Shown here: positions 9,373 to 57,185 of the stretch, piece by piece
Numbering within the stretch: position 1 is the first letter of the stretch
Layout of the letters: each line of letters opens with the position of its first letter
DNA from: Pseudomonadota bacterium
GTDB lineage: Bacteria > Pseudomonadota > Gammaproteobacteria > Burkholderiales > Burkholderiaceae_D
DNA: 64,000 nt
Assembly: GCA_040386255.1 (NCBI GenBank)
Contig: JAZKFW010000084.1
Coordinates: 7,295 to 71,294, forward strand
Reading direction: 5' to 3'
Translations under genes and position numbers: made by a program
Notes under the pieces: model-generated
Databases searched by the model: none
Seen by the model: only the letters and a program-made list of their open reading frames with translations
Told to the model about the DNA's origin: nothing

Positions 9373-9717
9373 AAAGCCTCCCTTGCTGAAAGACTATGCG
9401 AATTAGTGCGCCGAGAAAATTGTGACCAAATAATCTTACTCCTGGCCGACCGACAGTTTCATTTTTTTTAACTTGTGCTTTAAATGCAACAAGTGCGCCT
9501 GAGTCCCCCATCTGGCTCTCCCCCGACTGGTCAATGACGTCGCTATGACGCTGACGATTTCGATCGAAAAATATATGGATTGCACCTCGGTGGCGGGCTG
9601 ATGTGTATCAAGTGCCGGCTACTGCTCGCGCGCAACAATGCACCCCAGTTCGACGCAGCCCAGGCGCGATCCCGCGCACCTTCCGTCGAGGTTTTCACGG
9701 GTCAGAGGAGCTTTAAC

Positions 9718-12495: not shown

Positions 12496-13423
12496 TCCGA
12501 CCCTCAATCATGTCGCTGAGGAGATCGATGCCCTTTGCCTGCAACGCGGGCGCTGCGTGCTATTGCTTGATCCGTTTGGCGGCAATCACTTGAAGGCGGC
12601 GATCGATGCGCTGGTATCCCCGCCGGCCCAACGCCTGCGCCTGAACGACCCGATCTTCAAGGACGACCTGGAGAGTGCGCCTTTATTGATCGAGCTGTTA
12701 AGCACGGAGGAGACCCATCAGGAGTTGCTAGCGCAGAGCATCACGCGCGCGCAGGAAGAGGCGCGTAACACGGCCGGGCCGCGCGGAGTCTGCGCTTGGT
12801 TGTTCACCGACGCCCCGCTGCAGCGACTGCAGCACGCAATGCGCCAACGCCTCGATGCGCAATACCCGAAGCGCGAACGCGTATACCTGCGCTATTTCGA
12901 TCCGCGGGTCATGCCACGGTTGGCCGAATTGCTCGGTTCGCCCACCGAAAAGCCAACGCCGCCTTATAGCAGCCTGACGCACCTGCTCGGCCCAATCCAA
13001 ACCTGGTGCCATCTCAATCGCGAAGGCGATCTGCAGCGCCACGACAACCCACAACCCGCCAACGCGGGACTCGGCGGGTACCTGCATTTCGACCAAACGA
13101 CGGCGGCGGCGATCGACCGCATCGAGGCTATCAATTTGACTGCGCGTGCGCTCCTTCAGCGCGCAATGCCGTGCAAGCAAAGCGATGACGGGATGATCGA
13201 CACGCATTTGAGACATGCGAAAAGCCTTGGGCTAACTCAGATTGCTGATTGGGTCGCTTACGCGTGGCGTGCGATGCATCACGGTACCGCATTCACGCGC
13301 CATTCGATGCTGCATCAACTACTTGCGCAAGCGGCGTCGAACGGCATCCCATTCGACGTGCTAGTGGAAGCGCACTTGCCAGCAACCTCTTTCGACATCG
13401 CCCCTAGTGAGACGACAGCATGA
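12482..13423 (+). CDS. DUF4123-family T6SS effector adaptor/chaperone (VasW/Tap-1-like)
   Basis: It overlaps the vgrG stop by 14 nt. The motifs CVLLLDPFGG, APLLIEL and RVYLRYFDPRVMPRL match my memory of DUF4123. Its position between vgrG and a large effector fits that role. Confidence 0.8.
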   Translation: MSNDNPTLNHVAEEIDALCLQRGRCVLLLDPFGGNHLKAAIDALVSPPAQRLRLNDPIFKDDLESAPLLIELLSTEETHQELLAQSITRAQEEARNTAGPRGVCAWLFTDAPLQRLQHAMRQRLDAQYPKRERVYLRYFDPRVMPRLAELLGSPTEKPTPPYSSLTHLLGPIQTWCHLNREGDLQRHDNPQPANAGLGGYLHFDQTTAAAIDRIEAINLTARALLQRAMPCKQSDDGMIDTHLRHAKSLGLTQIADWVAYAWRAMHHGTAFTRHSMLHQLLAQAASNGIPFDVLVEAHLPATSFDIAPSETTA

Positions 13424-16400: not shown

Positions 16401-16446
16401 GCTCGAAGAACTTCGAAAAGCGCTACAACCGAGAAGCGGAATCTGA
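13420..16446 (+). CDS. T6SS effector, VasX-N-terminal-region family, with hydrophobic C-terminal (pore-forming-like) domain
   Basis: ATGA overlap with the adaptor gene. The N-terminus CKFCEKNGLLWLPLRYSVV has the Cys-x2-Cys plus LP(L/V)RY signature. A Lys/Ala/Gln-rich coiled-coil-like stretch is followed by 4-5 hydrophobic helices in the last ~250 aa. Confidence 0.8.
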   Translation: MSGKKDCKFCEKNGLLWLPLRYSVVGSDYPTAFDRLPEIGGKKLGKGVVDIKLTDPKSKYAVRLLRPGYLYLLLDHRGLRYWRAYQVLDDANLYEFDVDNPPQIEPQFSCDPILCGVNASVVSIPDPRNVKKMFALFTHAPLTKAKLSEYRASADAYAREGKMQTFSPADWLNGDTEQLHSLLGAELLTTVAEYRLFTEPGNPASPHARPFATPLSQALNEQMIPATRDAYGVAIPNEKGVYGGRMGALQDLIKRNGYAAFVLYDHIGITQELNDFRNDAFMPIDAFMGQRDGPGPDNRRKFDVYNEITEWRQLMEKGLVTNAEHSVEQADYLRRVQREPLFIDDSKTMLADKAAKSGVVPTVRERQKFPRRKEWESAHPAIVEELERERQVDEDSYIEFAQNKAKNDWRDRYAPHLDLMEMERFIAKMNGISKQSQTNANTRAAQHISWLKSERVIRALDVCDQEDPISGEALSAQIFQCIFGMEGCAETERVLTDWATAIHVERENLFLRAFTRDQKGVKEELDKSLSEVPEQTTGTTEFTVGPATSSTTASKGVVAAMKATDSALDEWMRQQGQSKSYLNPKHIANVEARFFYLVSTVTRAVARKGIGSMLEMKLVGRANVLLMSRLGDLAAKLEHDTLTAQIDPSKWNDIKQKHKQAEVQARAAEARKTAQQRKAYRLAKRAKAQLENAALDLISDAQCKAKLHVAAGAKSLGWNALQGDLEESAKQHRNYKDVAKNLEGKKTSAERIPSSPSPTNNYHQVRLGGALAAIESLSLYSKIKEMKEPGFNIATGEIIASAASLSSILADMMYAYTKSVRELPNYIAIDGIKQGADIVRGGFKLIAGSLALLAGVSTVLIEYRKAKNEHDPFLQGILYARSFHGGASTIFGALAAFSYTGPLLNHLAKKHSRAVYVSKRLNAAGTLANALVDRVTLLRTVAWLGWVGVIITVADLAVAGYRWHVEYTAITRWLSRCTFRKMKTNKCFNSRCEELEELRKALQPRSGI

Positions 16447-16502
16447 GCAAAGAAAAAAAACAACAAACGGGTAGCCTACATTCTAAGTTGAGGGGTATCA
16501 CA

Positions 16503-17264
16503 ATGAATATGCAACAGGAAGCTCAATTCTTTGTTGTCGAAGGCACGATCCAAGCTATGCAGATATCATCCGGCAGTGTGAATCTAATCGAAGACATACA
16601 AAATGGTGCTTTCTGGACCGGCGTGGCCGCAGGAGTTGGAGGTGAAGCCGGAGTGTTAGCGAATTCCGCCAGTCTGACCCTGTATGACGGCGAAGAAGTC
16701 GAGCATATGGCTTTACTAATTAACGATCGGCTTGCAATTGGAACATTCGAATGGCTTCGAGATCTGATGATAGATGACGATGTAAAGCTAGTCGTGTCTG
16801 AAACCGACGCCGGGCCATTATTTGTTCACGCGATTCTTCGCAAGAACGACCAGTTACTATGGACACCACTCTGTGTGAATCATACGCGCCGGGGCTGGAT
16901 GTTACACGGCGTAAAGCTGGGTTCGACAGGTCTTTTGGGCATGATTCTTATGTTCGGATCAATTTTCGTTTTGGATGAGAAGAGCAGACCCGACGGGCCA
17001 TGGCTATTATTCGGAATATTTTTCACAATCGCATTAATTTCATTTGTCGTATTTATGAGCACTGCAAGCGTTATCCATCAGGGAGACTACGCGGAGAAAA
17101 TATTTCGTGCGCTCGGGGTCCCAAAAGCTGACAGGTTTCAGATAAAGCCTTATTCAATTTTCAATTTGCATTTTGAACACGCAGAGGAACCTTTTAAAAA
17201 AAACCATATCTATCAATTTTCCGATGCGCTGTACGCTCATAAACTCAAGTTTAATCTACCGTAG
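16503..17264 (+). CDS. Putative immunity protein 1 (2-TM membrane protein, unknown family)
   Basis: ATG 16503 lies 7 nt after GAGGGG, immediately downstream of the effector. Two hydrophobic helices (LGSTGLLGMILMFGSIFVL and WLLFGIFFTIALISFVVFMSTASVI). It is a paralog of the next gene. Confidence 0.55.
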   Translation: MNMQQEAQFFVVEGTIQAMQISSGSVNLIEDIQNGAFWTGVAAGVGGEAGVLANSASLTLYDGEEVEHMALLINDRLAIGTFEWLRDLMIDDDVKLVVSETDAGPLFVHAILRKNDQLLWTPLCVNHTRRGWMLHGVKLGSTGLLGMILMFGSIFVLDEKSRPDGPWLLFGIFFTIALISFVVFMSTASVIHQGDYAEKIFRALGVPKADRFQIKPYSIFNLHFEHAEEPFKKNHIYQFSDALYAHKLKFNLP

Positions 17265-17565
17265 TTCTTTAAAATCTCTCCGGCTGTATGCGCGTGGCGC
17301 TATTCATCGATGAAAGCACATTCACTGCGCCGGGACGCGTGCATTTCATTTCGATACCGAAAACGACTCATTTGTCACAAGGAAAAACGCCGGGGCGTCG
17401 CGGGGGAAGCCGGTTCGATGATGGTTGCACCATATCATGAGGACTACACTATGTGCGGACATCTAGCTTACTAATGACGATCGCTGCGGCGCGCGCACAG
17501 CAGCTTTCTGACCGTGGGTTCTTACGAATGCCCCAATCAGCCATGATTAGCAGTGGAGAATGACT

Positions 17566-18312
17566 ATGCCGGAAACTCAACAATTATTTATCGTTCAAGG
17601 TCCGATTCAAGAACTACGAGTATCTCCTGACATCGCAAAATTAATTTTCGATCTGCAAACTGAAGCATTTGTTTCTGGTGTATTTTCCGGCTTCGCGGGA
17701 CAAGCGGGCGTGGCGGCAAATTCGGCAAGCGTCGCAATGTATGACGGCGAAGATGTGGAGCATTTAGCCCTGCTGATTAATGACAAACTTGTCGTCGGCA
17801 CCTTTGAATGGCTACGTAACCTGAACGTGGGAGATCAGGTCACACTGGTGGTATCGACAATTGACGATGGCCCCCTGTTCGCGCACGCTATCCTTCGCAG
17901 CAATGATCAGCTCCTGTGGACCCCGTTTTCCGTCGATCACACACGCCGGGGCTGGATACTGCACGCTGTGAAATTAGGGCTGCTTGGTTTAATCGGAACT
18001 TGGCTTATGCTTGGCTCGTTCTATATTCTTGGTAGTAGACCGACCGCAGAGGTTATGGCTTGGACGTTCGTCTTTTCTATTTTGCTAATCACTTTCGTCG
18101 TGTCTATGAGCACAATGGGGGTGATGCACTTAGGTGTGCAGGCGGAGGCTATTTTTCAAGCGTTGAAAGTACCAAAATTCGAGCAATTTAGAATCAAGCC
18201 CTACTCACTTCTTCGCATGCGCTCTGCGAACGACGCAGACCGCTTCAGAAAAGGGCATATATTCTATTTTGCAGATGCATTATCTGCGCACAAAAAGAAG
18301 TTTAGATTGTAG
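17566..18312 (+). CDS. Putative immunity protein 2 (paralog of 16503..17264)
   Basis: It shares blocks with the previous gene: YDGE(E/D)VEH(M/L)ALLIND, GTFEWLR, NDQLLWTP, HTRRGW, (Q/R)IKPYS. The two-helix topology is the same. ATG 17566 lies 7 nt after GGAGA; the alternative ATG is at 17560. Confidence 0.55.
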   Translation: MPETQQLFIVQGPIQELRVSPDIAKLIFDLQTEAFVSGVFSGFAGQAGVAANSASVAMYDGEDVEHLALLINDKLVVGTFEWLRNLNVGDQVTLVVSTIDDGPLFAHAILRSNDQLLWTPFSVDHTRRGWILHAVKLGLLGLIGTWLMLGSFYILGSRPTAEVMAWTFVFSILLITFVVSMSTMGVMHLGVQAEAIFQALKVPKFEQFRIKPYSLLRMRSANDADRFRKGHIFYFADALSAHKKKFRL

Positions 18313-18337: not shown

Positions 18338-21093
18338 TCACGCGATCAGTTTCAGCCCTTGAGGCAGCGTCTCGCCGAACACGCGCCGTTCGGTCGCCTC
18401 GTCCAGTGCGACCACTTCTTCCACCATCTGGATCCAGATAGCTGGCGCATTCACCTGGCGCAGGCGCGCGGCGATGGTGTCGCGCAGCGCCTGCGGCAAA
18501 TCGCGCGCGCGATCGCCCGTCATGCGCGCCAGGTAGGCGGCGGCAAATGCGGCCGGCTCGAGCCGGCGCCAGTCGAGCGCGAGGACGGCGTCGAGCCAGG
18601 TGGCGACAACGTCAGCCGGCACCAGGTCGTCGAGGTTGCCGTAAAAAGGCTGGCGCGCGCCGATCCGGCCCAGCGCCCACAGCGTGAGCGCGTCGTTCGC
18701 CTTGCCGAGGCGCGCCAGCAGCCACTCGCCGATCTCCACCTTGTAGGCGGGCGGGATGCGTTCGAGCGAGGCGCCCAGGCGCAGCATGTCGTCGTCGCTG
18801 CCGCGCACCACCGCGCCATCGTCCACGCCGCCTTCGTTGACTTCCAGGTTGGCGGCGAAATCTTGAAGCAATCGCTGCTGCTGTTGCGCATCGAGGCCGC
18901 CGGCCACGCGCCGCCACAAGGTCCACCATTCGGCCTGCACCTGCTTGTCGGCGCCGTGTGCCACGCCGGCCTCGAACAAGGTCCACAGCTGCTGCAGCCG
19001 CCAATCGTCCAACGCGAAGCCGAAGCCGGGCCGCAGGCAGTATCCGGCGAGGTTGAGCCACAGCCGCTCGTGTTCTGGCGAGCGGCGCCGCGCCTTGGCG
19101 CGCAGCCACAGGGCATCGAACAGCTGACGCAGCAGCGGCGTGCTCCAGCCGGCACGATCGCCCAGCACCTGCTCGAGCTGCGCGCGCAGCTGCTTCACTT
19201 CCTTGGCCGGCACCTGCTGCGCCTTGGCGCCGAAGATCCGTTCGATCTGCGGCAGCGCCAGCGCCAGCCGCGCGGCAGCGCCATCGTCGTCGATGGCTTC
19301 GGCGGCTTCATCGTGCTGGCGCAGGTCGAACTCCAGCAGCCAGCGCTCGCTCGCATCGTCGACGCCGACGCAATGCATTTCCAGCGTACCCACCTCGGTC
19401 AGCGCGGTGGCCAGCTGCACCGGCACTTCGCGCCGCGTGGTAGTTGCGGACGCGCGCAGGACCATCGCGATCGGCGGCAGGCGCGCAAAGTCGCCGTCGT
19501 CGAGGTCGACCAGTTCGCCCAGCGCGAACGGCGCGCGGCCGGCGACCTCCGCGCTCGACGTGAACAAGTGGAAGCGCACCGGCTCGCCGACCCGCAACGC
19601 AAAGTTGTGCGCGTCGAGGCGCAGTTCCTGGCCCGCCTCGCTGCCGCGCGGCAGGATGCAGATGGCGCGGCGCGCGCCTTTCCTGGCCTCGCCGAGCAGC
19701 AGAAAATAGCTGCGCGCGGCGCCGCCACCGATCTTCGGCGTGCCGCCTTCGCCGGCCAGCGCGTACGCCACCGCGCCGCGTGCCACCGCGACGTCCGGGT
19801 CGTCGTTGTGCAGCACCCGCAGCGGGGCGCCGCGCCAGGCGCCCAGGGTCGCCTCGATGCGGCTTGCCAGTGCACTGGCGCGGAACACGCCGCCGTTAAG
19901 CAGCAGGGTGTCAGGCACTGTCTCGTTGTTGGCCTCGCGCACGGCATCGGCGTGGCGGCGCAGGAAGTCGGCAACGTGGCGCGTGATGGCCGCGTCGCGC
20001 GCATAAGGCAGGCCGAATTCGACGATGCCGGCGCGCCGTTGCAGCAGCGGCTCGGCGGCGTCCACGCGCGGGAAGAAGCCGTCGACGATCAGCGTTTCGA
20101 CTTCATCGCGCGTCAACGTGGCCGAGCGCGCGCCGCCGATCAGCCGCGCGCCGGCGCCGAGCAGCGTGACGTTGACATGGTCCGGCGCATCGGCGGCGAG
20201 CAGCTGCTCCTTGGCGGCGCGGCAGCGCTCTACCAGCTGCGACAGGCGGCTGGCCGACAGCCGCTCGGCGCCGCCGCCCAGGCGCGACTCGGCCAGGTGG
20301 GCCAGCGCGGTGTCCATGTTGTCCCCGCCCAGCATCAGGTGGTTGCCGACGCCGATGCGCGTGATGCTGGTCTGGCCGTCGCGCAGTTCGACCTTGATCA
20401 GGCTGAGGTCCGTGGTGCCGCCGCCGACGTCGCACACCAGCACCAGGCGCGTGTCGGCCAGCGCCTCAGCGAGCGAGGCGCGGTGGCGCCGCAGCCAGTC
20501 GTAGAACACCGCCTGCGGTTCTTCCAGCAGCCGCAGCGTCGGCAGGCCGGCGGAGCGGGCCGCCGCCAGCGTCAGCGCGCGCGCCGCTTCGTCGAACGAG
20601 GCGGGCACCGTCAGCACCAGGTCCTGCTGCTCCAGCGGGTCGTGCGGGAAGCGATGGTTCCAGGCCGATCGCAGGTGCGCGAGGTAGCTGGCGCTCGCTT
20701 CCACCGGCGACACCTTGGGCACGTCGGGCGCACCGCCCCATGGCAGGATCGGCGCAAGGCGGTCGACGCCGGAATGCGAGAGCCAGCTCTTGGCGCTGGC
20801 CACCAGGCGCCCTGGCACCTGCGCGCCGAGCTTGCGCGCCAGCGTGCCAACGACCACATGCTCCGGCGTCGCCCACGGCAGCTGCAGGTCGGCTTCGGCC
20901 AGCTCGCCGGCGCCGGCCTGGTAACGCACCGACGGCAGCAGCGGCAGCGCGGATACTTCGCCTGGCGCGACCAGCTGCTCGACTTCGAACAACGTCACCG
21001 GTCCCGCAGTCTTGCCTAGTTCGGAGTAGGCGAGCACGGTGTTGCTGGTGCCCAGATCGATGCCGACCGCGTACCTGGCCACGCGCGCCGCCA

Positions 21094-21094
<1 letters not shown>
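18338..21094 (-). CDS. Atypical long Hsp70-family ATPase (about 918 aa) with helical C-terminal extension
   Basis: Actin/Hsp70 nucleotide-binding motifs: AVGIDLGTSNTVLAY, CDVGGGTTDLSLI, LGGDNMD. About 300 aa of uncharacterised Leu/Ala/Trp-rich C-terminus. A GTG at 21094 overlaps the upstream TAG by 1 nt; the alternative GTG is at 21082. Confidence 0.8.
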
Positions 21095-22931
<1,837 letters not shown>

Positions 22932-22935
<4 letters not shown>

Positions 22936-23510
22936 AGTTCCACCTCGGCCTGGGCCAGCACGGTGGCGTCGTGGCCGCTCGCCAGCTGCGGCAGGCGCAC
23001 GTCGGTGGCGCGCCAGCCGCGGTGACTGAGGCTGCCCTTGAACGGCGCGCTGCCGACGACGTTGCCGGTGAGGCGGATGGCGCCGGCGTCGAAGCCGGCG
23101 TCGAGGCTGATGCGGCTGCCCTCGGCTTCGGCGCGCACCGGGGCGATGGTGAAATGCTCGCGCAGCACCTTGCGGCAGCCCTCGTGGACGATGCGCGCGG
23201 CCGCGCCGATGTCGGCGTCGGCGTAGCTGGCGAGGTCCTCTTCGGTGAAGTCGATCAGGCGCGCGTCGCGCTGGAACAGCGCCAGCAACTGCAGCGCCGC
23301 GTCGGGCGTGGCCTGGCGCAGCGGCGCCACGGGAGCGGCCGGCGCGACCGGCGCTGCGGCGGGCGCCGGCGCCTCGTCGCGGTGCAGGCGGCCCGCGCGC
23401 GCGGCGACGGCAGGGCTCGACAGGATGCTGAAAAAGGCGCCGAACGCCAGGGAAATACGTTGCATCAGCGACGGCTGCGGCGTCTGCTGCTCAGGTGTGG
23501 CGTTGTTCAT
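22932..23510 (-). CDS. DUF2760-like protein, first gene of the Hsp70-pair operon
   Basis: ATG 23510 lies 9 nt after AGGAGC. A hydrophobic LAFGAFFSIL segment, an Ala/Pro-rich linker, then ALQLLALFQRDARLIDFTEEDL...IVHEGCRKVL, which I recall as DUF2760. The start is uncertain (alternative 23540). Confidence 0.65.
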
Positions 23511-32310: not shown

Positions 32311-32949
32311 CTAGAACAGGTCGATCCCATGAAGGGTCAGGAAGGCATCTGTCCCTGTCGCGGTCAGCAATGGCACGGCCGCGCCGGCGACCGCCAGGCT
32401 AACCCGGTCAAACACCGCCACGCAAGGTTCGCCCGAGAAGCGCGAGGTGAAATAGATGCCGTCGAGGTTGTTCACGTTGTCATGCACAGCCTCGCTCCAC
32501 AAGCTCGGGCCTTCATAGTCATTGACTGACATGATCAGCGTGCTTGCGCCGAACGGTGCCAGCGGCTGGGTGAAGTCGACCAGGCGCAATGGCCGTGCGG
32601 GATCGGTCACGACGCGCGAGATGCTACGGGTGTCGAACTCGGTCTGCTCGATGAGCAAGGGCACCGGCACGCCGGCAAAACGGTCGCGCACAATGGTCTC
32701 GAACACGCAGCATGATAGCGAAAAGCCGCCATACAGGACACCAAACTCGCGTCCCGGGGCGCTCCCGGCCGGGGCGTCGAAGCGGTACCGTTGGGTGGTG
32801 ACGGAGGGTTGATTGAAGTGGACGGCGCCGCGCGAGCTACGATGGACCCGGTACAGGGGCCGCGCGTGCAGGTCGATCGTGACGACCGGAAGTGTGCGGT
32901 TGGTAATCCCTGGCGGCGGAAGCGGACAACCCCCTGCCGCAGTCATCAT
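32311..32949 (-). CDS. RES-domain toxin (Xre/RES, MbcT/ParT-type)
   Basis: RYRFDAP (Arg), GVLYGGFSLSCCVFETIVRD (Glu) and GIYFTSRFSG (Ser) give the R-E-S pattern. ATGA overlap with the upstream antitoxin gene. Confidence 0.8.
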   Translation of the reverse strand: MMTAAGGCPLPPPGITNRTLPVVTIDLHARPLYRVHRSSRGAVHFNQPSVTTQRYRFDAPAGSAPGREFGVLYGGFSLSCCVFETIVRDRFAGVPVPLLIEQTEFDTRSISRVVTDPARPLRLVDFTQPLAPFGASTLIMSVNDYEGPSLWSEAVHDNVNNLDGIYFTSRFSGEPCVAVFDRVSLAVAGAAVPLLTATGTDAFLTLHGIDLF

Positions 32950-33692
32950 CCGGCCCCCTGGTCACCGTGGAAGCGGTTACGTGCCAGGACGGCCACGCGC
33001 TCAAGGTCCTGCGCGGCGTCGCTGATCCAGTCGCGTGGTGCTGCGCCGTCGAGCAAGCTGCTGGGGGATATCATGAAGACATGGATTCCCCAGGCAGTGG
33101 AGCCCGCTGCGCGCGCGATGGCGAGCACCGATTGCAGGCGCTGCTCCGGCACGTCAAACTGCCATCGCGGGAAGCGAAACCCGCGGGTTTGCCCTTCTGC
33201 CAACAGCGCATAGTAGCGGCCGTCGTTGCGGCGCTCGTTGATCACGCGGGTCGACAGGCCAACATGCTCGGAAGCCTGTTCCAGCGACAGATTGCCGGGG
33301 TTGGCATATTCCGTGCGTTTCCACGCAGCGCCGCGTTCGCGCGCGGCGGCAACCGCCTCGCTGGGAGGGTTGAGGCGCTCGGCCAGCTTCTCCTCCACCG
33401 CCTTGTTTATCATCTGTTCGAGGGTCGAACTCGCGCCATGCGCCCACCGTTTCGCTCTGATCCTTGCACGCTTGGACAAGAAGGCGGCCACCCTGCTCGG
33501 AGCATTGGGGACGAATGCGTCGATATTGCCCGCCAATGCCCTGGGTCCGCCCAGTTTTCTTGGCTGCACGAGTGGCGTCTGCAGCACGCCGGTCGCGTCG
33601 CCGTTCCCTTGCGGAGTTATGACGGAGGTCGACCCAACCCGGGGGCGGATGCGGTTTTTACTCTGCAATGGTCGGAACGGCGCGTAGGTCAT
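32946..33692 (-). CDS. Xre/MbcA/ParS-type antitoxin (HTH plus C-terminal DUF2384-like toxin-binding domain)
   Basis: HTH-like LSLEQASEHVGLSTRVINERRNDG. The C-terminus AWGIHVFMISPSSLLDGAAPRDWISDAAQDLERVAVLARNRFHG resembles DUF2384. The N-terminal ~100 aa is low-complexity, so the true start is uncertain. Confidence 0.7.
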   Translation of the reverse strand: MTYAPFRPLQSKNRIRPRVGSTSVITPQGNGDATGVLQTPLVQPRKLGGPRALAGNIDAFVPNAPSRVAAFLSKRARIRAKRWAHGASSTLEQMINKAVEEKLAERLNPPSEAVAAARERGAAWKRTEYANPGNLSLEQASEHVGLSTRVINERRNDGRYYALLAEGQTRGFRFPRWQFDVPEQRLQSVLAIARAAGSTAWGIHVFMISPSSLLDGAAPRDWISDAAQDLERVAVLARNRFHGDQGAG

Positions 33693-50998: not shown

Positions 50999-51034
50999 TG
51001 ATGCAGATGTTCGTTGTACAACTTGGAGGAAGAC

Positions 51035-52150
51035 ATGATAGTAGGGGTTCCAAAAGAGATTAAGAACAACGAGTACCGGGTCGGCCTCACGCCTCCCAGC
51101 GTACGCGAACTGACCTCGCGGGGTCACCAGGTGCTGGTGCAGAAAAGCGCCGGCCTCGAGATCGGCTTGCCTGACGAACAGTACGTCGCGGCAGGCGCGT
51201 CCATCGTCGACACCGCGAAGGAAATCTTTGCCCGTGCGGAAATGATCGTCAAGGTCAAGGAACCGCAGCCCGGCGAATGCGCGATGCTGGGCGAAGGCCA
51301 GATCCTGTACACCTATCTGCACCTGGCGCCGGATCCGGATCAGACGGCGGCGCTGGTGCGTTCGGGCGCGGTCTGCATCGCCTACGAAACCATCACCGGC
51401 GCCGGCGGCGGCCTGCCGCTGCTCGCGCCGATGAGCGAAGTGGCGGGGCGCATGGCGATCCAGGCCGGCGCCGCCCACCTCGAGAAATCGAAAGGCGGCA
51501 TGGGCTTGCTGCTGGGCGGCGTGCCTGGCGTTGCCGCCGGTCACATCGTGATCATCGGCGCCGGCGTGGTCGGCACCAACGCGCTGCAGATGGCGATCGG
51601 CACCGGTGCGCGCGTTACCGTGCTCGACAAGAACATGGACCGCCTGCGCCAGCTCGACCTGATTTTCGGCAACCGCATCGCCACCCAGTATTCGAACGCG
51701 CACGCAATCGAGGAAGCGGTGCTGTCGGCCGACCTGGTCATCGGCGGCGTGCTGGTGCCAGGCGCCGCGGCGCCGAAGCTGGTCACGCGCGACATGATTT
51801 CACGCATGAAACCGGGCGCGGTGGTGGTCGACGTCGCCATCGACCAGGGCGGCTGCTTCGAGACTTCGCACGCGACGACGCACGCCGATCCGACCTTCAA
51901 CCTCGATGGCGTGGTGCACTATTGCGTCGCCAACATGCCTGGCGCCGTTGCCCGCACCTCGACCTTCGCGCTCAACAACGCCACCATTGGCCACGCTGTG
52001 GCACTTGCGGAGAAGGGCTGGAAGCAGGCCATGCGCGACGACCCGCACCTCAGGAACGGCCTTAACGTGTGCCTGGGCAAGGTCACCTACGCCGCGGTGG
52101 CGCAGGCGCTGGACTACGAGTACGCGGCGGCGGACTCGATGCTTGGGTAA
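51035..52150 (+). CDS. ald: Alanine dehydrogenase
   Basis: [20 protein letters not shown], the NAD motif [11 protein letters not shown] and [23 protein letters not shown]. It starts 36 nt after putA. Confidence 0.93.
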
Positions 52151-52914
52151 TCCAGGCAAAAACGCCTGACGATATGGAAGGCATAGCGCGCGGCGACCGA
52201 TTTCACGAAATGTAGAAAATCGGTCGCCGCGTCTTCATTTGCGTTGTCGGAAATCGTACGGATGACGGCGAACGGCACGCCCAGCTCGAAACACACTTGC
52301 GCCACCGCCGCCCCCTCCATCTCGACCGCCAGCAAGCCTGGATGGGACGAATTCAATCGTTCGATATGGCCACGGCTGCTGACGAACTGGTCGCCGCTGG
52401 CGATCAGGCCGCGGTGCACCCGCGGCTGACCCAGCCTGAACACCTGCCTGTCTTCCAAACCGATCACATCCCGAAAGTCCGCTTCCAGGAATCCGAGCGC
52501 CGCGCCGGCCAGCTGCGCCGACAACCGTGAATCCGAGGGAAAGTTCGAAATACCGGTCAACGGCACCTCGAAACGAGGGAAAAGGGGACTGGCGTCCATG
52601 TCGTGCTGCACCAGCGATTCGCCGATGACAATGTCGCCAACCCGCACGCCGGCATCGCCAGAACCTGCCACACCGGTGAACAGGATGTGGGTAACTCCGA
52701 ACTTCTCCACAAGCATCGCCGCCGTCATCGATGCCGCGACCTTGCCAATACGCGACAGGACGCACACAGCGTCGATGCCGAACAGTCGGCCGGTGGAGTA
52801 GTCACGCATGCCGTGCACGACCATGGCGGCCCCTTCCATGGCTTGCACGAGCCCTTCCTGTTCTTCATGAAGGGCGCTGATGATTCCTAAGCGCTTGATT
52901 TTGTGGTGATTCAT
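52114..52914 (-). CDS. PNP_UDP_1 family nucleosidase (MTA/SAH nucleosidase-like)
   Basis: LGIISALHEEQ, FTGVAGS, GDQFV and VEMEGAAVAQVC...IRTISD are Pfs/MtnN-like motifs. Its 3' end overlaps the ald 3' end by 37 nt (convergent). Confidence 0.75.
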   Translation of the reverse strand: MNHHKIKRLGIISALHEEQEGLVQAMEGAAMVVHGMRDYSTGRLFGIDAVCVLSRIGKVAASMTAAMLVEKFGVTHILFTGVAGSGDAGVRVGDIVIGESLVQHDMDASPLFPRFEVPLTGISNFPSDSRLSAQLAGAALGFLEADFRDVIGLEDRQVFRLGQPRVHRGLIASGDQFVSSRGHIERLNSSHPGLLAVEMEGAAVAQVCFELGVPFAVIRTISDNANEDAATDFLHFVKSVAARYAFHIVRRFCLDYPSIESAAAYS

Positions 52915-52966
52915 GGTTCTGGAAGACGGTTTTCAGCGCTTGTCCACATTCTTCGCTGCGTTTACT

Positions 52967-53031
52967 GTTTTATACAAAGATATATATATAAATTTAGTAG
53001 TAATAGTAAACGGCGATTTTTTTGTGGATAA
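52967..53031 (+). repeat. Origin-unwinding-like module 1: A/T tract, TAG/TAA trinucleotide run, spacer, DnaA box
   Basis: 52967-52994 is an A/T-rich tract with a single C and two Gs. 52995-53009 reads TAG TAG TAA TAG TAA. A 13-nt spacer ACGGCGATTTTTT follows, then TGTGGATAA at 53023-53031. Confidence 0.5.
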
Positions 53032-53400
53032 CTCGGTTTTTATCAACAGGCTCAACGGTTTACGGCGTTTACAAGTACGCTCAAAAACATTGTATCCAGT
53101 TGGGATCATTGTTGGATAAAAAATCGGCTGTGGACAAATGGATGAGTTCTGCACATTAGACCCTGTGGATATCCAACAGCTTATCCACAGCCTTGGCCGT
53201 CGAGCCGTCAACTCGCGAAAGCGGGGATCAATGCCGAGCTATCAAAAGGGTAAGCTTGTCAAAATGGTTGGCTCATCGATTTTTGAAAAAGTAAAACCGT
53301 CTGCACAAAAAATAGTCATCAACGTTTGCCTTCTTTTTTTGACGCGAAGGTCCGGAGACACGGTTTTCGGGCTTTTCGAAGTCCTCTTTTCGTTTGCTTG

Positions 53401-53467
53401 TTTACTTAAACAAGTATGTATACAAGTTTAGTAGTAGTAGTTAACGCAGGCCATTTTCTGTGGATAA
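53401..53467 (+). repeat. Origin-unwinding-like module 2 (direct repeat of module 1 architecture)
   Basis: 53401-53428 is AT-rich and contains TATACAA, as module 1 does. 53429-53440 reads TAG TAG TAG TAG. An 18-nt spacer TTAACGCAGGCCATTTTC follows, then TGTGGATAA at 53459-53467. Confidence 0.5.
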
Positions 53468-53633
53468 GGCCATATTCTTTCACAAAATCAACAACTTGCA
53501 CGCTGTATAAACCGGTTAACGACTTTGTATGCTGCTGGTGGCAATTCTGGACAATTTCTGGGGTGTGAATAAAATAGGGTTTATCCACAAACCGTACCTG
53601 TGGATATTCATAGACTTATCCACAGGAGGTTGT

Positions 53634-54671
53634 ATGGACGTGTTGTCGCTGATGGAATTCCCGATCGTTCAAGGGCCGATGGCCGGAGGTTCCTGCACGC
53701 CTGCCCTGGTGGCCGGGGTGTCGAACGCCGGTGGTCTGGGCAGCCTGCCCGGCTCGCTTCTCACGCCCGCGGCAATCCGCGAGCAGGTCGGACAGGTCCG
53801 CACGATGACCGATCGGCCGTTCCAACTCAATTTCTTCGTTCAGGCAACGCCCGCGCCCAGCGAACAGGAAGTGAAAGCCGGCGTCGAATTGCTGCGCCCC
53901 ATATGGGAAAGCCTGGGCTGGAGCGAACTGCCGCTGCCGGCCCAGTGGGCGCAGGACTTCGGCGCCCAGTTCGAAACGCTGCTCGAATTGAAGCCCGCCG
54001 CCGCCAGCTTCACTTTCGACATCTTGTCGGAGACGCAAGTCGAGCGCCTGCACTCGGCCGGCATCGCCGTCATCGGCACCATCACCACGTTGGAAGAAGC
54101 GCTGGCCTGGGAGAAAATCGGCGCCGACGCCGTGGTGGCGTCCGGCATCGAGGCGGGCGGACACCGCGGTACTTTCCTCGGCCCGCAGGAAGAAGCGACG
54201 CTGTCGGCGCGCAAGCTGTGGCCGCTGGTGGCGGAAGCGGTCGAGATTCCCGTCATTGCCGCCGGCGGCATCATGACCGGCGTCGACATCCAAGAAGCAT
54301 TGTCGCTCGGCGCCAGGGCCGTACAGATGGGAACCGCCTTCCTCGTGACCGACGAGTCCGGCATCCATCCAGCCTACAAGCAGAAGCTGCTGTCGGGCAG
54401 CGGCCTGACGACGCGGCTGACCCGCAGTTTCTCCGGCCGCTACGCCCGCGGCATCGAAAATCGTTTCATGAAGCAAATGGAGAGTGTGGAGACGCAAGTT
54501 CCAGCGTATCCTGTGCAAAATGCATTGACAGGAAGTATACGAGCAGCCGCCGCAGCCAGCGGCGACACCGAACTGATGTCGATGTGGGCCGGCGCCGAAG
54601 TCGGCCGTTCGCGCGCGCTGTCGGTGGCGCAGCTGATGCAAACGCTGGTGGCGGAGATGCGCCCTACTTGA
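53634..54671 (+). CDS. Nitronate monooxygenase (NMO / 2-nitropropane dioxygenase family)
   Basis: ATG 53634 follows AGGAGG. PIVQGPMAGGSCTPALVAGVSNAGGLGSL, GIEAGGHRG and IPVIAAGGI are FMN-binding TIM-barrel motifs. Confidence 0.85.
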   Translation: MDVLSLMEFPIVQGPMAGGSCTPALVAGVSNAGGLGSLPGSLLTPAAIREQVGQVRTMTDRPFQLNFFVQATPAPSEQEVKAGVELLRPIWESLGWSELPLPAQWAQDFGAQFETLLELKPAAASFTFDILSETQVERLHSAGIAVIGTITTLEEALAWEKIGADAVVASGIEAGGHRGTFLGPQEEATLSARKLWPLVAEAVEIPVIAAGGIMTGVDIQEALSLGARAVQMGTAFLVTDESGIHPAYKQKLLSGSGLTTRLTRSFSGRYARGIENRFMKQMESVETQVPAYPVQNALTGSIRAAAAASGDTELMSMWAGAEVGRSRALSVAQLMQTLVAEMRPT

Positions 54672-54681
54672 GGAGCCTTGA

Positions 54682-56307
54682 TTGGAATCGGCAGGACAAT
54701 ACGACTACATTATCGTGGGAGCCGGCACTGCCGGCTGCCTGCTGGCAAACCGCCTCACACGCAAGAAAGACACCACCGTCCTGCTGATCGAGGCCGGCGG
54801 CAAGGACGATTACCTGTGGATCCACATTCCGGTCGGCTACCTGCATTGCATCGGCAATCCGCGCACCGACTGGCTGTACAAGACCGAAGCCGACGCCGGC
54901 ATCGGCGGGCGCTCGCTGGTCTACCCGCGCGGCAAGGTGCTGGGCGGCAGTTCGTCGATCAACGGCATGATCTACATGCGCGGCCAGGCCGGCGACTACG
55001 ACCGCTGGGCCGAGCTGACCGGTGACTCGTCCTGGGCCTGGGACAAGGTGCTGCCGCTGTTCATGAAAACCGAGGACCACCACGGCGGCGCCAGCGCAAG
55101 CCACGGCAGCGGCGGCGAATGGCGCGTCGAAAAGCAGCGCCTGTCGTGGCAGATCCTCGACGCCTTCCGCGACGCCGCCGACCAGGCCGGCATCCCGAAA
55201 GTCGACGATTTCAATACCGGCGACAACGAGGGCTCTTCCTATTTCGAGGTCAACCAGCGCCGCGGCATCCGCTGGAATACCGCCAAGGCATTCCTGAAGC
55301 CGATCGCCGCGCGCGAAAACCTGACCATCATGACCGGCTGCCATGTCGAGCGCCTGGTGATCGAGAATACGGAACTTGGCCCGGTGTGCAAGGGCGTTGA
55401 ATTTACCGGCGGCGGCAGGAAGTATCGCGCCGACGCCGTCCGCGAAACCTTGCTGGCGGCGGGCGCCATCGGTTCGCCGCAAATTTTGCAGTTGTCCGGC
55501 GTCGGCCCCGCGGCAGCGCTCAACCAGCATGGCATCGTCCCGCTGGTCGACGCGCCAGGCGTCGGCGAAAACCTGCAGGACCATTTGCAGTTGCGCATGA
55601 TTTACAAGGTGAACGGCGCCAAGACGCTCAACACCAGCGCCGCGACCTGGTTCGGCAAGATGAAGATTGGCCTCGAATATGCGGTGCGGCAGAGCGGGCC
55701 GATGTCGATGGCGCCGTCGCAGCTGGGCGCGTTTGCCAGGTCCGACCCCGGCCAGGCCAGCGCCAACCTGCAGTATCACGTGCAGCCGCTGTCGCTGGAG
55801 AAGTTCGGCGATCCGCTGCACCCGTTTCCGGCCTTCACCGCCAGCGTCTGCAACCTGCGCCCGACTTCACGCGGGCACGTCCGCATCGCCGGCAACGACA
55901 GCTACGCGCCGCCGAAAATCACCCCCAATTACCTGAGCACGGCCGAGGACCGCAAGACCGCCGCCGCGGCGCTGACGCTGACGCGCAAGATCGTCGCCGC
56001 GCAGGCGCTGGCCAGATATGCGCCGGAGGAATTCAAGCCCGGCATGCATTACCGCACCGAGGACGAACTGGCGGAAGCTGCCGGCCTGATCGGCACGACG
56101 ATCTTCCATCCGGTCGGCACCTGCAAGATGGGTCGCGCCGATGACCCGATGGCGGTGGTCGATAGTCAATTGCGCGTCATCGGAGTGGGGGGCTTGCGCG
56201 TTATTGATGCATCCGTCATGCCGAACATAACATCGGGCAACACGAATTCGCCGACCTTGATGATCGCGGAGCGGGCCGCTGAGCTCATCGCTGCTGTGCC
56301 GCGATGA
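54682..56307 (+). CDS. GMC family oxidoreductase (choline-dehydrogenase-like)
   Basis: TTG 54682 lies 6 nt after GAGGAG. YDYIIVGAGTAGCLLANRL (FAD), GKVLGGSSSINGMIYMRG, and the C-terminal HPVGTCKMG...VIDASVMP. Confidence 0.85.
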   Translation: MESAGQYDYIIVGAGTAGCLLANRLTRKKDTTVLLIEAGGKDDYLWIHIPVGYLHCIGNPRTDWLYKTEADAGIGGRSLVYPRGKVLGGSSSINGMIYMRGQAGDYDRWAELTGDSSWAWDKVLPLFMKTEDHHGGASASHGSGGEWRVEKQRLSWQILDAFRDAADQAGIPKVDDFNTGDNEGSSYFEVNQRRGIRWNTAKAFLKPIAARENLTIMTGCHVERLVIENTELGPVCKGVEFTGGGRKYRADAVRETLLAAGAIGSPQILQLSGVGPAAALNQHGIVPLVDAPGVGENLQDHLQLRMIYKVNGAKTLNTSAATWFGKMKIGLEYAVRQSGPMSMAPSQLGAFARSDPGQASANLQYHVQPLSLEKFGDPLHPFPAFTASVCNLRPTSRGHVRIAGNDSYAPPKITPNYLSTAEDRKTAAAALTLTRKIVAAQALARYAPEEFKPGMHYRTEDELAEAAGLIGTTIFHPVGTCKMGRADDPMAVVDSQLRVIGVGGLRVIDASVMPNITSGNTNSPTLMIAERAAELIAAVPR

Positions 56308-56414
56308 CAATTCAGGGTGAAATGGTAGTTATACCGTATTGTGACGAAATTTTATTGTGTGTATTATCGTAAAAAAAATACATAGCAGTATGATAAAAAT
56401 ATCACGGAGACCCA

Positions 56415-57185
56415 ATGACGGATGTCATATTACAGACAAAAAACCTGACCAAAGAGTTCAAAGGTTTCACAGCAGTAAGTGACGTCAACCTCAGTGTCGA
56501 GCGCGGTCACATCCACGCTCTGATCGGCCCGAACGGCGCCGGCAAGACCACCTGCTTCAACCTGCTGACCAAGTTCCTGGTGCCGACCTCGGGCCAGATC
56601 CTGTTCAACGGCAAGGACATCACGCACGCCAAGCCGGCCCAGATCGCCCGCATGGGCATCATCCGTTCGTTCCAGATTTCGGCGGTATTTCCGCACCTGA
56701 CGGTGCTGCAGAACGTGCGCATCGGCTTGCAGCGCGAACTGGGCACGTCCTTCAATTTCTGGCAGAGCGAGCGTTCACTGTCGCGCCTCGACGACCGCGC
56801 CATGCAGTTGCTGGCCGAGGTCGACCTGACCGAATTCGCCGACACCGTTACCGTCGACATGCCGTACGGCCGCAAGCGCGCGCTCGAAATCGCCACCACC
56901 CTGGCGATGGACCCCGAGCTGATGCTGCTCGATGAGCCGACCCAGGGCATGGGCCACGAAGACGTCCACCGCGTCACCGAGCTGATCAAAAAAGTATCGG
57001 CCGGCCGCACCATCCTGATGGTCGAACATAATATGAACGTGGTTTCCGGTATTTGCGACAAGATTTCAGTGCTGCAGCGCGGCGCCATGCTGGCCGAGGG
57101 CACGTATGCCGAGGTATCGCGCAACCCGCAGGTGATGGAAGCCTACATGGGCACCACCAGCGCCGACCTCGAAGGAGCGCACTGA
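56415..57185 (+). CDS. Branched-chain-amino-acid-type ABC transporter ATP-binding protein (LivG-like)
   Basis: GPNGAGKTT, the LivG-type insertion, PYGRKRALEIATTL, LLDEPTQGM, MVEHNM. Confidence 0.85.
   Translation: MTDVILQTKNLTKEFKGFTAVSDVNLSVERGHIHALIGPNGAGKTTCFNLLTKFLVPTSGQILFNGKDITHAKPAQIARMGIIRSFQISAVFPHLTVLQNVRIGLQRELGTSFNFWQSERSLSRLDDRAMQLLAEVDLTEFADTVTVDMPYGRKRALEIATTLAMDPELMLLDEPTQGMGHEDVHRVTELIKKVSAGRTILMVEHNMNVVSGICDKISVLQRGAMLAEGTYAEVSRNPQVMEAYMGTTSADLEGAH

Follow-up and report, generated by a model that had tools for sequence, protein, structure and literature searches.

A probable dnaA-distal chromosomal origin made of two tandem units in a Massilia-group Oxalobacteraceae bacterium

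An AT-rich gap with clustered DnaA boxes

The locus described here is the gap between two divergent genes, mtnN and a nitronate monooxygenase gene, which both point away from it (Table 1). It lies in a 64-kb window (the whole stretch of DNA that was analysed), in which glmS, glmU and coaD are present as core genes. The protein family matches (NF004079 and PF03060) agree with the names that the first-pass annotation had given to the two flanking genes. The gap (52915-53633, 719 bp) has a GC content of 41.2%, against 63.4% and 64.6% in the 2-kb flanks, which bears out its description as far more AT-rich than its surroundings; the 719 bp with the lowest GC content in the window (40.8%, at 52894) practically coincide with it. 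An 8.5-kb contig, reached through exact protein matches, carries an identical gap.

Five perfect copies of the DnaA-box 9-mer TTATCCACA/TGTGGATAA start at 53023(-), 53181(+), 53459(-), 53581(+) and 53616(+), exactly where they had been reported; no other perfect copy exists in the 64-kb window, for which the expected number is 0.08. The first-pass annotation had counted ten boxes; its five perfect and five one-mismatch boxes stand, and its total does not, since a sixth one-mismatch box, TTATCAACA at 53040, had been overlooked. With one-mismatch boxes at 52940, 53040, 53129, 53164, 53564 and 53599, the gap holds 11 DnaA boxes that have one mismatch or none. In 2000 dinucleotide-preserving shuffles of the gap itself, the means were 0.007 perfect and 0.22 one-mismatch boxes and the maxima 1 and 3, confirming that this density exceeds chance. 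The last box was said to overlap the ribosome-binding site of the monooxygenase gene; in fact, box 53616-53624 directly abuts the GGAGG at 53625-53629 and does not overlap it. Gating of the monooxygenase gene by DnaA is plausible. A hidden gene or RNA in the gap was rejected, as searches of the gap for Rfam families and for credible ORFs were both empty.

Table 1. Positions, in the window, of the flanking genes and of the elements found in the gap
Feature	Position	Strand	Remarks
mtnN, 5'-methylthioadenosine/S-adenosylhomocysteine nucleosidase	52114..52914	-	NCBIfam NF004079, 7e-80
DnaA box left of unwinding element 1, TTGTCCACA	52940..52948	+	1 mismatch; weakly conserved column in the mtnN-proximal alignment
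GTTTAC hexamer	52960..52965	+	with the inverted GTAAAC at 53006-53011 brackets unwinding element 1
Predicted DNA unwinding element, unit 1	52969..53009	.	AT-rich; least stable 40-bp duplex of the 64-kb window
DnaA-trios, unit 1: TAG TAG TAA TAG TAA	52995..53009	+	5 trios, 3'-GAT-5' type on this strand
R1-type DnaA box, unit 1	53023..53031	-	perfect (TGTGGATAA on + strand); 14 bp after element 1
DnaA box TTATCAACA	53040..53048	+	1 mismatch; overlaps weak IHF-like stretch 53041-53062
Box array, unit 1	53111..53172	.	53111(-, 2 mismatches), 53129(-, 1), 53147(+, TTCTGCACA, 2), 53164(-, 1)
R4-type DnaA box, unit 1	53181..53189	+	perfect; 158 bp after R1
Inter-unit spacer	53190..53399	.	no gene or RNA family found
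Predicted DNA unwinding element, unit 2	53403..53443	.	AT-rich; second least stable 40-mer locally, fourth in the 64-kb window
DnaA-trios, unit 2: TAG x4	53429..53440	+	followed by 18-nt spacer 53441-53458 containing GTTAAC
R1-type DnaA box, unit 2	53459..53467	-	perfect; 16 bp after element 2
IHF-like site AATCAACAACTTG	53486..53498	+	exact match to WATCAANNNNTTR; 19 bp after unit 2 R1
Box array, unit 2	53546..53607	.	53546(-, 2 mismatches), 53564(-, 1), 53581(+, perfect), 53599(-, 1)
R4-type DnaA box, unit 2	53616..53624	+	perfect; 157 bp after unit 2 R1
Nitronate monooxygenase gene	53634..54671	+	Pfam PF03060, 8e-86; transcribed away from the gap

Unit anatomy, homology to confirmed origins and replicon context

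The gap consists of two tandem copies of one complete origin-type unit, 435-436 bp apart. Each unit runs in the same order, from AT-rich, least-stable DNA through DnaA-trios of the TAG type, a reverse box without mismatches, an IHF-like site and a box array to a perfect forward box, which sits 157-158 bp after the reverse one. The AT-rich side of unit 1 adjoins mtnN, whose transcription heads away from it, and the stability of its predicted unwinding element is -0.94 kcal/mol per step by nearest-neighbour free energy, against a regional mean of -1.54. The trios of unit 1 are separated from the R1-type box by 13 nt (53010-53022); in unit 2, the arrangement of GTTAAC plus trios is one that is also seen in the B. 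cenocepacia origin. Within both arrays, boxes follow one another at start-to-start distances of 17-18 bp. The first-pass annotation had missed this two-unit tandem structure. We rejected the idea that the GTTTAC...GTAAAC repeat bracketing the unwinding element forms a cruciform or hairpin, since the folding z-scores (-1.6 and -0.6) are not significant.

About 38 Oxalobacteraceae loci, from Massilia, Janthinobacterium, Duganella, Pseudoduganella and relatives, carry two or three such units in the same syntenic place upstream of mtnN, while the mtnN loci of Cupriavidus, Paraburkholderia, Caballeronia and Comamonadaceae have no such box cluster. The synteny matches are complete chromosomes, and the synteny of the flanks is conserved, including the core genes coaD and rsmD in related loci. 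Among complete chromosomes, that of Massilia sp. R2A-15 (CP131935.1) has its units at about 4.4451-4.4463 Mb, a short way upstream of mtnN (4,446,313), and that of Duganella sp. P38 (NZ_CP193936.1) has the locus at about 0.369 Mb. When 94 units were aligned, the R1-R4 spacing was 157-159 bp in most, with extremes of 160-161, and the trio, motif and box-array columns were conserved. The GTTTAC hexamer is highly conserved in the 94-unit consensus; it precedes unwinding element 2 as well (53400-53405) and occurs also in the Burkholderia and Cupriavidus origins. The IHF-like column, aaATCAnnnGtTTAC in the family, is conserved family-wide and aligns with GATCAAGG of the Burkholderia origin; in unit 1 of the window, the TTATCAACA box aligns to it.

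An nhmmer profile built from the 94 units matched the chromosome-1 origins of B. cepacia (E = 5e-13) and B. cenocepacia (E = 4.7e-12) in a database of 722 kb, the alignment spanning the unwinding element, the trios, R1 and the IHF-like site. The other published origins and 41 control loci gave E values of at least 0.1, and no match to the profile was seen in the initial 400 nt of the C. necator origin, a region of 1177 bp. The Burkholderia chromosome-1 origins have been confirmed by marker frequency and lie about 48 kb from the DoriC prediction (PMC13342612); the C. necator N-1 origin, confirmed in the same way, is some 80 kb away from the DoriC site. Du et al. 2016 (PMC4948915) placed the B. 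cenocepacia origin at the GC-skew minimum, and in Cupriavidus CH34 the GC-skew switch is found about 90 kb from dnaA, beside three perfect boxes. An origin of the Burkholderiales type lies tens to hundreds of kb from dnaA, and in this order an origin away from dnaA is documented as the norm.

In line with what had been stated, family scans found no dnaA, gidA or parAB in the window, and a tblastn search with E. coli DnaA found no dnaA in the window or within +/-10 kb of 82 loci. By its homology to the confirmed Burkholderia origins and the absence of an adjacent dnaA, the locus falls with the B. cenocepacia-type dnaA-distal oriC. A search of the window for parS, allowing up to 3 mismatches, gave no site, which counts against an origin here. 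Polarity of KOPS (GGGNAGGG) was rejected as a marker, there being only one site in 64 kb and the counts in the loci tracking gene strand. A plasmid or chromid origin was also rejected: a plasmid collection matched the flanking metabolic genes only, and there are no rep/par genes in the window.

GC skew is -0.015 to the left and -0.014 to the right of the gap, with no switch. Among relatives, 25 of 30 loci, which are syntenic and not independent, go from -0.019 on one side of the cluster to +0.015 on the other, with flanks of 10-53 kb; no switch is seen in several Massilia loci or in the complete locus of Massilia sp. R2A-15. At third codon positions, the skew is above zero on either flank of almost every locus, a result of the dominance of C-ending codons and of most genes sharing a strand. 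We discarded local GC skew as a guide to where the origin lies, as it is uninformative at 10-50 kb, where coding-strand bias dominates; for the same reason the flat skew of the window is not contradictory, and the positive skew in relatives is also weak evidence. A point against an origin in the gap is that about 59% of the genes to its left (23/39, rough calls) would be head-on to a fork leaving it.

The gap presents all five sequence features by which Weigel (2025, bioRxiv 10.1101/2025.08.05.668638) predicts an oriC: (i) an unwinding element of 20-50 bp prone to strand separation, recognized here by nearest-neighbour stability as a proxy for SIDD; (ii) the mandatory box, a perfect TGTGGATAA near each unwinding element (53023, 53459); (iii) the flanking-gene orientation, mtnN (-) leaving unit 1, and unit 2 having unit 1 and no gene upstream; (iv) a box array, each unit having 6-7 boxes (up to 2 mismatches) between R1 and +158 bp; and (v) the optional DnaA-trios, present in both units. 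Under the BUS rule (Pelliciari et al. 2021, PMC8287927), the box may have up to 2 mismatches, the spacer may not be longer than 16 bp, and 3 or more NAN trios are required. Unit 1 conforms to it, with a perfect box, five trios and a spacer of 13 nt, the commonest length in the BUS definition (PMC8287927); unit 2 has a perfect box and four trios, but its 18-nt spacer exceeds the limit. By our own count, the spacer of the confirmed B. cenocepacia origin is about 24 nt, so the 16-nt limit may be too strict for Burkholderiales.

Taking into consideration: (i) these sequence criteria, (ii) the syntenic conservation in about 38 Oxalobacteraceae genomes and (iii) the homology to origins confirmed by marker frequency, we conclude that the gap is very probably the chromosomal oriC of a Massilia-group Oxalobacteraceae bacterium, of the Burkholderiales dnaA-distal type, with two tandem paralogous units. 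The proposal of a dnaA-distal chromosomal origin made in the first-pass annotation is thereby supported. A tandem multi-unit origin architecture is apparently undescribed so far; in the literature on Oxalobacteraceae origins and on tandem origins, we found nothing specific.

From the arrangement of the parts, we infer how such an origin could work. DnaA would be permanently bound to the perfect outer boxes, the R1-type beside the unwinding element and the R4-type 157-158 bp away, a distance of about 15 helical turns that would place both on the same helix face. The IHF-like site just inside R1 would bend the DNA, and the weaker boxes in between, alternating in orientation every 17-18 bp, would be filled by ATP-DnaA. 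The DnaA oligomer anchored at R1 could then span the 13-18 nt spacer onto the TAG-type DnaA-trios and melt the adjacent AT-rich element, where the helicase would be loaded. Unit 1, beside mtnN, is the likelier primary unwinding site, because its duplex is the least stable, its spacer has the canonical length of 13 nt and the gene next to it points away; unit 2 may be either an alternative initiation site or an auxiliary platform for DnaA loading.

Readings of the tandem array

A further question is whether the locus is more than one origin. If the array were truly multi-origin, its two units (three in many relatives) would each be an independent functional initiation site, able to unwind and load helicase by itself. 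In favour of this, each unit class has retained a perfect R1 box (37/38 mtnN-proximal, 19/19 middle and 31/37 distal units), an AT-rich 30-mer with a median AT content of 80% or more and, in most cases, three or more TAG-type trios. Within Massilia, units orthologous by position are 75-76% identical between species, against 57% between the two units of the window; as identity between species exceeds identity between units, the duplication is old, with both copies maintained. The distance between units is not conserved, being 0.4 kb here and up to 3.4 kb in Duganella. Intact units flank a 3-kb GGDEF/EAL gene in Duganella and Pseudoduganella, and in Undibacterium and Lacisediminimonas mtnN itself separates them; units that stay intact despite variable spacing and intervening genes argue that each is self-contained. 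Against independent firing, unit 2 and the other distal units have spacers of 18-21 nt, beyond the 16-nt BUS limit, and the R4-type box is perfect in only 13/38 proximal units, a hint that units share boxes or cooperate; units 0.4 kb apart could, moreover, not be told apart in coverage profiles. Weighing these points, we regard independent initiation at each unit as a tentative reading, possible but on balance doubtful. The same caution applies to its evolutionary form, in which the Massilia/Janthinobacterium/Duganella clade might keep an array of 2-3 complete, independently competent origins derived from a tandem duplication of a Burkholderiales-type oriC that predates the separation of the genera, and retained even where genes came to lie between the copies; this, too, could be so, though it is less likely than not.

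Dense DnaA boxes with an IHF-like site also make up datA, and the gap fits that description. The locus could then be one for DnaA titration or nucleotide-state control, like datA/DARS or the B. subtilis clusters, which does not initiate, with the real origin elsewhere, for example beside dnaA. The window has no local skew switch, DoriC 6.5 sets the Herminiimonas and Herbaspirillum origins beside dnaA, and a position near dnaA is also given, if loosely, in genome papers on Herbaspirillum, Janthinobacterium HH01 and 'Minibacterium'; B. subtilis, with six DnaA-box clusters outside its origin (PMC3245932), provides a precedent. However, the datA/DARS-type definition has no unwinding element or trio module, and here both units carry a conserved element and phased trios at the correct distance from an R1-type box. 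In Oxalobacteraceae, the DoriC predictions beside dnaA have very weak trio scores (3-4), DoriC was wrong by 48-80 kb for Burkholderia and Cupriavidus, and the units are homologous to origins confirmed by marker frequency. A non-initiating control locus is thus quite unlikely.

Least probable is that the gap holds divergent promoters of mtnN and the monooxygenase gene under DnaA control and plays no part in replication: the genes are divergent, box 52940 lies 26 bp upstream of the mtnN start codon, another box abuts the monooxygenase ribosome-binding site, and a sigma-70-like site (53548-53575(+)) lies over the box array of unit 2, but such matches occur at chance frequency, 11 boxes and two unwinding elements go far beyond any known DnaA-controlled promoter, the units are homologous to the Burkholderia origin, and they persist where the monooxygenase gene is missing or replaced by a different neighbour and on either side of mtnN.

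The preferred reading, a dnaA-distal oriC with two tandem units, would locate the origin for a large soil and freshwater group (Massilia, Janthinobacterium, Duganella and relatives) for which genome papers and some database entries say that it lies beside dnaA. Genomes are rotated by origin position, which is also used in replichore analyses and in estimating growth rates from metagenome coverage. The tandem array also offers a natural system for asking whether a bacterial chromosome can both carry and use more than one origin, and it permits testing of the interplay between origin copy number, DnaA titration and initiation timing. If every unit were a working origin, the family would break the rule that a bacterial chromosome has one origin; should a single unit fire, the locus would be an ordinary origin with a duplicated DnaA-binding platform.

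Comparison with known systems

The closest likeness is to chromosome-1 oriC of Burkholderia cenocepacia J2315 and B. cepacia ATCC 25416 (PMC4948915; PMC13342612), which also belong to the Burkholderiales and whose origin is not beside dnaA. The shared core comprises TTATCCACAGAA (R1), the GTTAAC spacer, CTACTAC trios, the GTATA..ATAC AT-rich block and GTAAAC; an IHF-like site of the ATCAA type lies inside R1 in both, and the distal box is TGTGGATAA. The distance from R1 to the distal box is 181 bp in Burkholderia and 157-158 bp here, and the distal box pair is forward-N6-reverse there, whereas it is reverse-N8-forward here. Burkholderia has one unit within the 400 nt compared, against two here and up to three in relatives, and the flanking genes differ, the Paraburkholderia and Caballeronia mtnN loci being without boxes.

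In E. coli oriC, an AT-rich unwinding element is followed by a reverse R1, an IHF site, an array of weaker boxes and a forward R4. The units described here have this order in common with it, and in both cases the gene on the side of the unwinding element is transcribed away. Unlike E. coli oriC, the gap has no 13-mer and no GATC/Dam-SeqA system (only 2 GATC sites); its inner boxes alternate at 17-18 bp, where E. coli has same-orientation arrays with 2-bp gaps, and it shows explicit TAG-type trios and a tandem duplication of the whole unit.

E. coli datA/DARS and the B. subtilis box clusters resemble the gap in having DnaA boxes and an IHF-type site away from dnaA. They are not known to have a phased unwinding element or trios, and their boxes are fewer or weaker; unlike the units here, they are not known to be homologous to a confirmed origin.

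With the bipartite origins of B. subtilis and H. pylori and with BUS (PMC8287927), the units share the arrangement of box, spacer, DnaA-trio and AT-rich DNA, and in Duganella a gene splits the box clusters, as in bipartite origins. Those origins, however, have the unwinding element in one sub-region only and dnaA in between, whereas here an element and trios are found in each cluster, no gene lies between the clusters in the window and dnaA is absent.

Pseudomonas aeruginosa, described as the sole experimentally supported multi-origin case, has oriC1 and oriC2 about 5 kb apart with different flanking genes, and they have been argued not to be duplicates (Weigel 2025, bioRxiv 10.1101/2025.08.05.668638). 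As in this pair and in the predicted dual origins of Halomonadaceae, the gap contains two complete sets of elements close together, each with an unwinding element and an R1-type box and conserved in the family. Unlike oriC1 and oriC2, the units here are paralogous tandem copies, 0.4 kb apart and sometimes three in number.

Two tandem units between mtnN and the monooxygenase gene

Every perfect TTATCCACA site of the 64-kb window, five in number against 0.08 expected, lies in the AT-rich gap of 719 bp (window 52915-53633) between mtnN and the nitronate monooxygenase gene, together with six one-mismatch DnaA boxes; in dinucleotide-preserving shuffles of the gap, perfect sites averaged 0.007 and near-perfect ones 0.22. 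The first-pass annotation had placed the five perfect boxes correctly, and its five one-mismatch boxes are true, although a sixth, at 53040, had been missed. The GC content is 41.2% in the gap versus 63-65% in the flanks, the lowest-GC stretch of this length in the window being essentially the gap itself, and neither a tRNA nor an Rfam family nor a credible ORF was found in it. On its left side, ald (51014-52150, plus strand, ORF extent) and mtnN are convergent, with 3' ends overlapping by 37 bp (52114-52150); ald is missing from this position in Janthinobacterium and Duganella loci.

The cluster of DnaA boxes reported in the first-pass annotation is real; however, it is not single and diffuse but consists of one unit in two tandem copies, in register and ~435 bp apart, with unit 1 on the mtnN side and unit 2 on the monooxygenase side. 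Their parts, with coordinates checked against the sequence, are tabulated in order from left to right. Nearest-neighbour calculations rank the AT-rich block of unit 1 as the least stable of all 40-mers in the window and its counterpart in unit 2 as the fourth. The hexamer GTTTAC/GTAAAC, which is not a DnaA box, has five of its nine window copies in the gap; two of these form an inverted repeat around the unwinding element of unit 1. Its columns rank with the best conserved in a 94-unit alignment, it recurs in Burkholderia and Cupriavidus origin sequences, and it may be a site for an origin-binding factor; single-strand folding gave no significant hairpin for it.

Features of the window and of compared loci (L-numbers denote loci in other genomes)
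Feature	Position or unit 1	Unit 2	Strand	Remark
VgrG	9580-12495			type VI secretion cargo island, 9580-18312
DUF4123 chaperone	12482-13423			same island
VasX-N toxin, 1008 aa	13420-16446			same island
mtnN, 5'-methylthioadenosine/S-adenosylhomocysteine nucleosidase	52114-52914		minus	left border of gap
Nitronate monooxygenase	53634-54671		plus	right border of gap
GTTTAC hexamer	52960-52965	53400-53405		
AT-rich block	52969-53009	53403-53443		
TAG-type DnaA-trios	52995-53009 (5 trios)	53429-53440 (4 trios)		
Spacer, trios to box	13 nt	18 nt		
Perfect box, TGTGGATAA	53023	53459		reverse orientation
IHF-like site	53041-53062 (weak)	53486-53498 (exact WATCAANNNNTTR)		
Weaker boxes	53111-53172	53546-53607		alternating orientation, 17-18 bp apart
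Perfect box, TTATCCACA	53181 (158 bp past first box)	53616 (157 bp)		forward orientation
GTTTAC/GTAAAC copies in gap	52960-52965, 53006-53011, 53058-53063, 53067-53072, 53400-53405			
dCache-PAS-GGDEF-EAL gene between units	L022 6726-9810; L027 6045-9633			c-di-GMP signalling; also L026, L028-L030, L032, L033
Units flanking mtnN, L059	9732-9898, 10803-10969			
Units flanking mtnN, L037	9735-9901, 10827-10992			

The layout of the gap agrees with all five criteria for a predicted oriC (Weigel, 2025; bioRxiv 10.1101/2025.08.05.668638): an unwinding element, a consensus box in reverse some two turns farther downstream, transcription of the upstream gene (mtnN) away from the element, a contiguous box array and DnaA-trios. 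Unit 1 also conforms to the basal unwinding system (BUS) rule (Pelliciari et al., 2021; PMC8287927), its 13-nt spacer being of modal length; the spacer of unit 2 exceeds the 16-nt limit by 2 nt.

Relation to known origins of the Burkholderiales

A marker-frequency study of 2026 (PMC13342612) lists in its supplement the origin sequences that it confirmed, those of B. cepacia and B. cenocepacia chromosome 1 among them, and for B. cenocepacia this cluster, located at the minimum of the GC skew, had already been indicated by Du et al. (2016; PMC4948915). The Burkholderia origin shares with the window units a core of TTATCCACAGAA, a spacer containing GTTAAC, CTACTAC trios, a GTATA..ATAC block and GTAAAC, and like them has an ATCAA-type site inside the first box, the one beside the unwinding element, and a distal TGTGGATAA. 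A profile HMM of 94 Oxalobacteraceae units matched these two Burkholderia origins (E = 5e-13 for B. cepacia and 4.7e-12 for B. cenocepacia, 722-kb database); for Deinococcus, Paracoccus and Pseudoalteromonas origins and 41 control loci, E was at least 0.1. By these sequence matches, the window units are homologues of an experimentally supported origin.

In Cupriavidus metallidurans CH34, the genome paper places the GC-skew switch ~90 kb from dnaA, beside three perfect boxes, and in DoriC 6.5 the Janthinobacterium sp. Marseille origin lies ~106 kb from dnaA and that of Collimonas likewise away from the record start (PMC8287927, Suppl. Table S2). Together with Burkholderia, these cases show that an origin far from dnaA is the norm in this order. 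For Herminiimonas arsenicoxydans and Herbaspirillum seropedicae, DoriC 6.5 gives an origin next to dnaA whose trio score, 3-4, is very weak (PMC8287927); such calls in the family of the window may be mispredictions, as shown for Burkholderia and Cupriavidus. The dnaA-distal origin proposed in the first-pass annotation is thus supported by homology to the marker-frequency-confirmed Burkholderia origins and by the predicted-oriC criteria.

The decisive evidence for a probable origin comes from these literature sequences; local strand asymmetry could not settle the question. In 25 of 30 loci of relatives, GC skew moves from -0.019 to +0.015 across the cluster, and in a simple regression the change is independent of gene strand; the loci are syntenic and hence not independent tests. 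No GC-skew switch was found in the window, in several Massilia loci or in the complete Massilia sp. R2A-15 locus. At third positions, coding-strand bias swamps any replication signal at local scale, and KOPS and parS searches were uninformative on origin position.

Conservation of the locus and of its units

Among the matches listed, the closest named isolates for mtnN are Massilia (83% amino-acid identity to Massilia sp. R2A-15), and metagenome proteins reach 91%; the closest among the genome loci is M. soli (74%). The box cluster lies upstream of mtnN in ~38 loci of Massilia, Janthinobacterium, Duganella, Pseudoduganella, Noviherbaspirillum and Undibacterium, and is missing at the mtnN loci examined of Cupriavidus, Paraburkholderia, Caballeronia, Ralstonia and Comamonadaceae. 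Gene order is kept on both sides (Fe-ADH, ABC transporter, GMC oxidoreductase, (NMO), [units], mtnN, (ald), putA, asnC-type, lysR-type, coaD, rsmD), and the core genes glmS and glmU are also within the window, which makes this a chromosomal locus passed on vertically.

From these loci, 94 units were extracted. The outer boxes are 157-159 bp apart in most of them, and motif columns are strongly conserved, the sequence in between not. Most genomes have two or three units. Each positional class retains a perfect box beside the unwinding element and a 30-mer that is 80% AT or more, and trios usually number at least three. Massilia units orthologous by position share 75-76% identity between species versus 57% between units 1 and 2 of the window, which makes the duplication an old one with both copies retained; recent duplications or conversions are also present (76% for m2/m3 of locus L082, 74% for m1/m2 of L038). 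Inter-unit spacing is not fixed: in Duganella and Pseudoduganella a ~3-kb dCache-PAS-GGDEF-EAL gene separates two units, and in Undibacterium sp. Di24W and a Lacisediminimonas MAG (L059 and L037) mtnN has one unit on its upstream and one on its downstream side, which places this gene inside the origin region. The GGDEF-EAL gene is a single 1030-aa ORF in L027 and two ORFs (501 and 411 aa) in Duganella sp. P38, suggesting a frameshift or pseudogene.

Further observations concern the surroundings. The GMC oxidoreductase and adjoining ABC-transporter genes (54700-56940) show 71-73% nucleotide identity to Rhizobium and Paracoccus plasmids and are nonetheless syntenic across Oxalobacteraceae. The gap is 100% identical on contig JAWVHG010012459.1 (L081; 8.5 kb) of GCA_040384025.1, an assembly of >12,000 contigs in which the organism of the window, or a very close strain, is thus represented. 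The type VI cargo island, which includes two further ORFs without family matches, looks horizontally acquired, since its GC falls to 48% at 14-18 kb. Region 18338-23025 has a very high GC (~72%) and encodes, on the minus strand, a 1032-aa Hsp70-like protein with a C-terminal DUF3731 ('DnaK-related'), followed by a 434-aa ORF without Pfam match. At 32311-33692 (minus), a RES-domain gene (212 aa) directly downstream of a 248-aa ORF without family match resembles a RES-Xre toxin-antitoxin pair.

Proposed function and precedents

In the mechanism we propose, DnaA would hold the perfect outer boxes, IHF would bend the DNA beside the box adjoining the unwinding element, and ATP-DnaA would fill the weaker, alternately oriented boxes. 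From its anchor at the first box, an oligomer would span the spacer, reach the TAG trios and melt the AT-rich block, the presumptive place of helicase loading. Taking into consideration that unit 1 has (i) the least stable DNA, (ii) the canonical spacer and (iii) the correct orientation of the flanking gene, it seems to be the primary site, and unit 2 could serve as a second origin or as a platform for loading DnaA. The last box of unit 2 directly adjoins the ribosome-binding site of the monooxygenase gene, where bound DnaA might dampen this gene as well, although the sole promoter-like match is at chance frequency.

Neither a titration or control locus (of the datA, DARS or box-cluster kind) nor a promoter region with a regulatory role only is likely: in each unit the unwinding element and trios are in phase, and each is homologous to a confirmed origin.

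As an origin, and in its distance from dnaA, the locus is of an already known kind. Our literature searches turned up no account of complete, paralogous origin units arranged in tandem and kept throughout a family; closest are the dual origins of P. aeruginosa and Halomonadaceae, for which it is stated outright that neither is a duplicate of the other, whereas the units of the window are paralogous.
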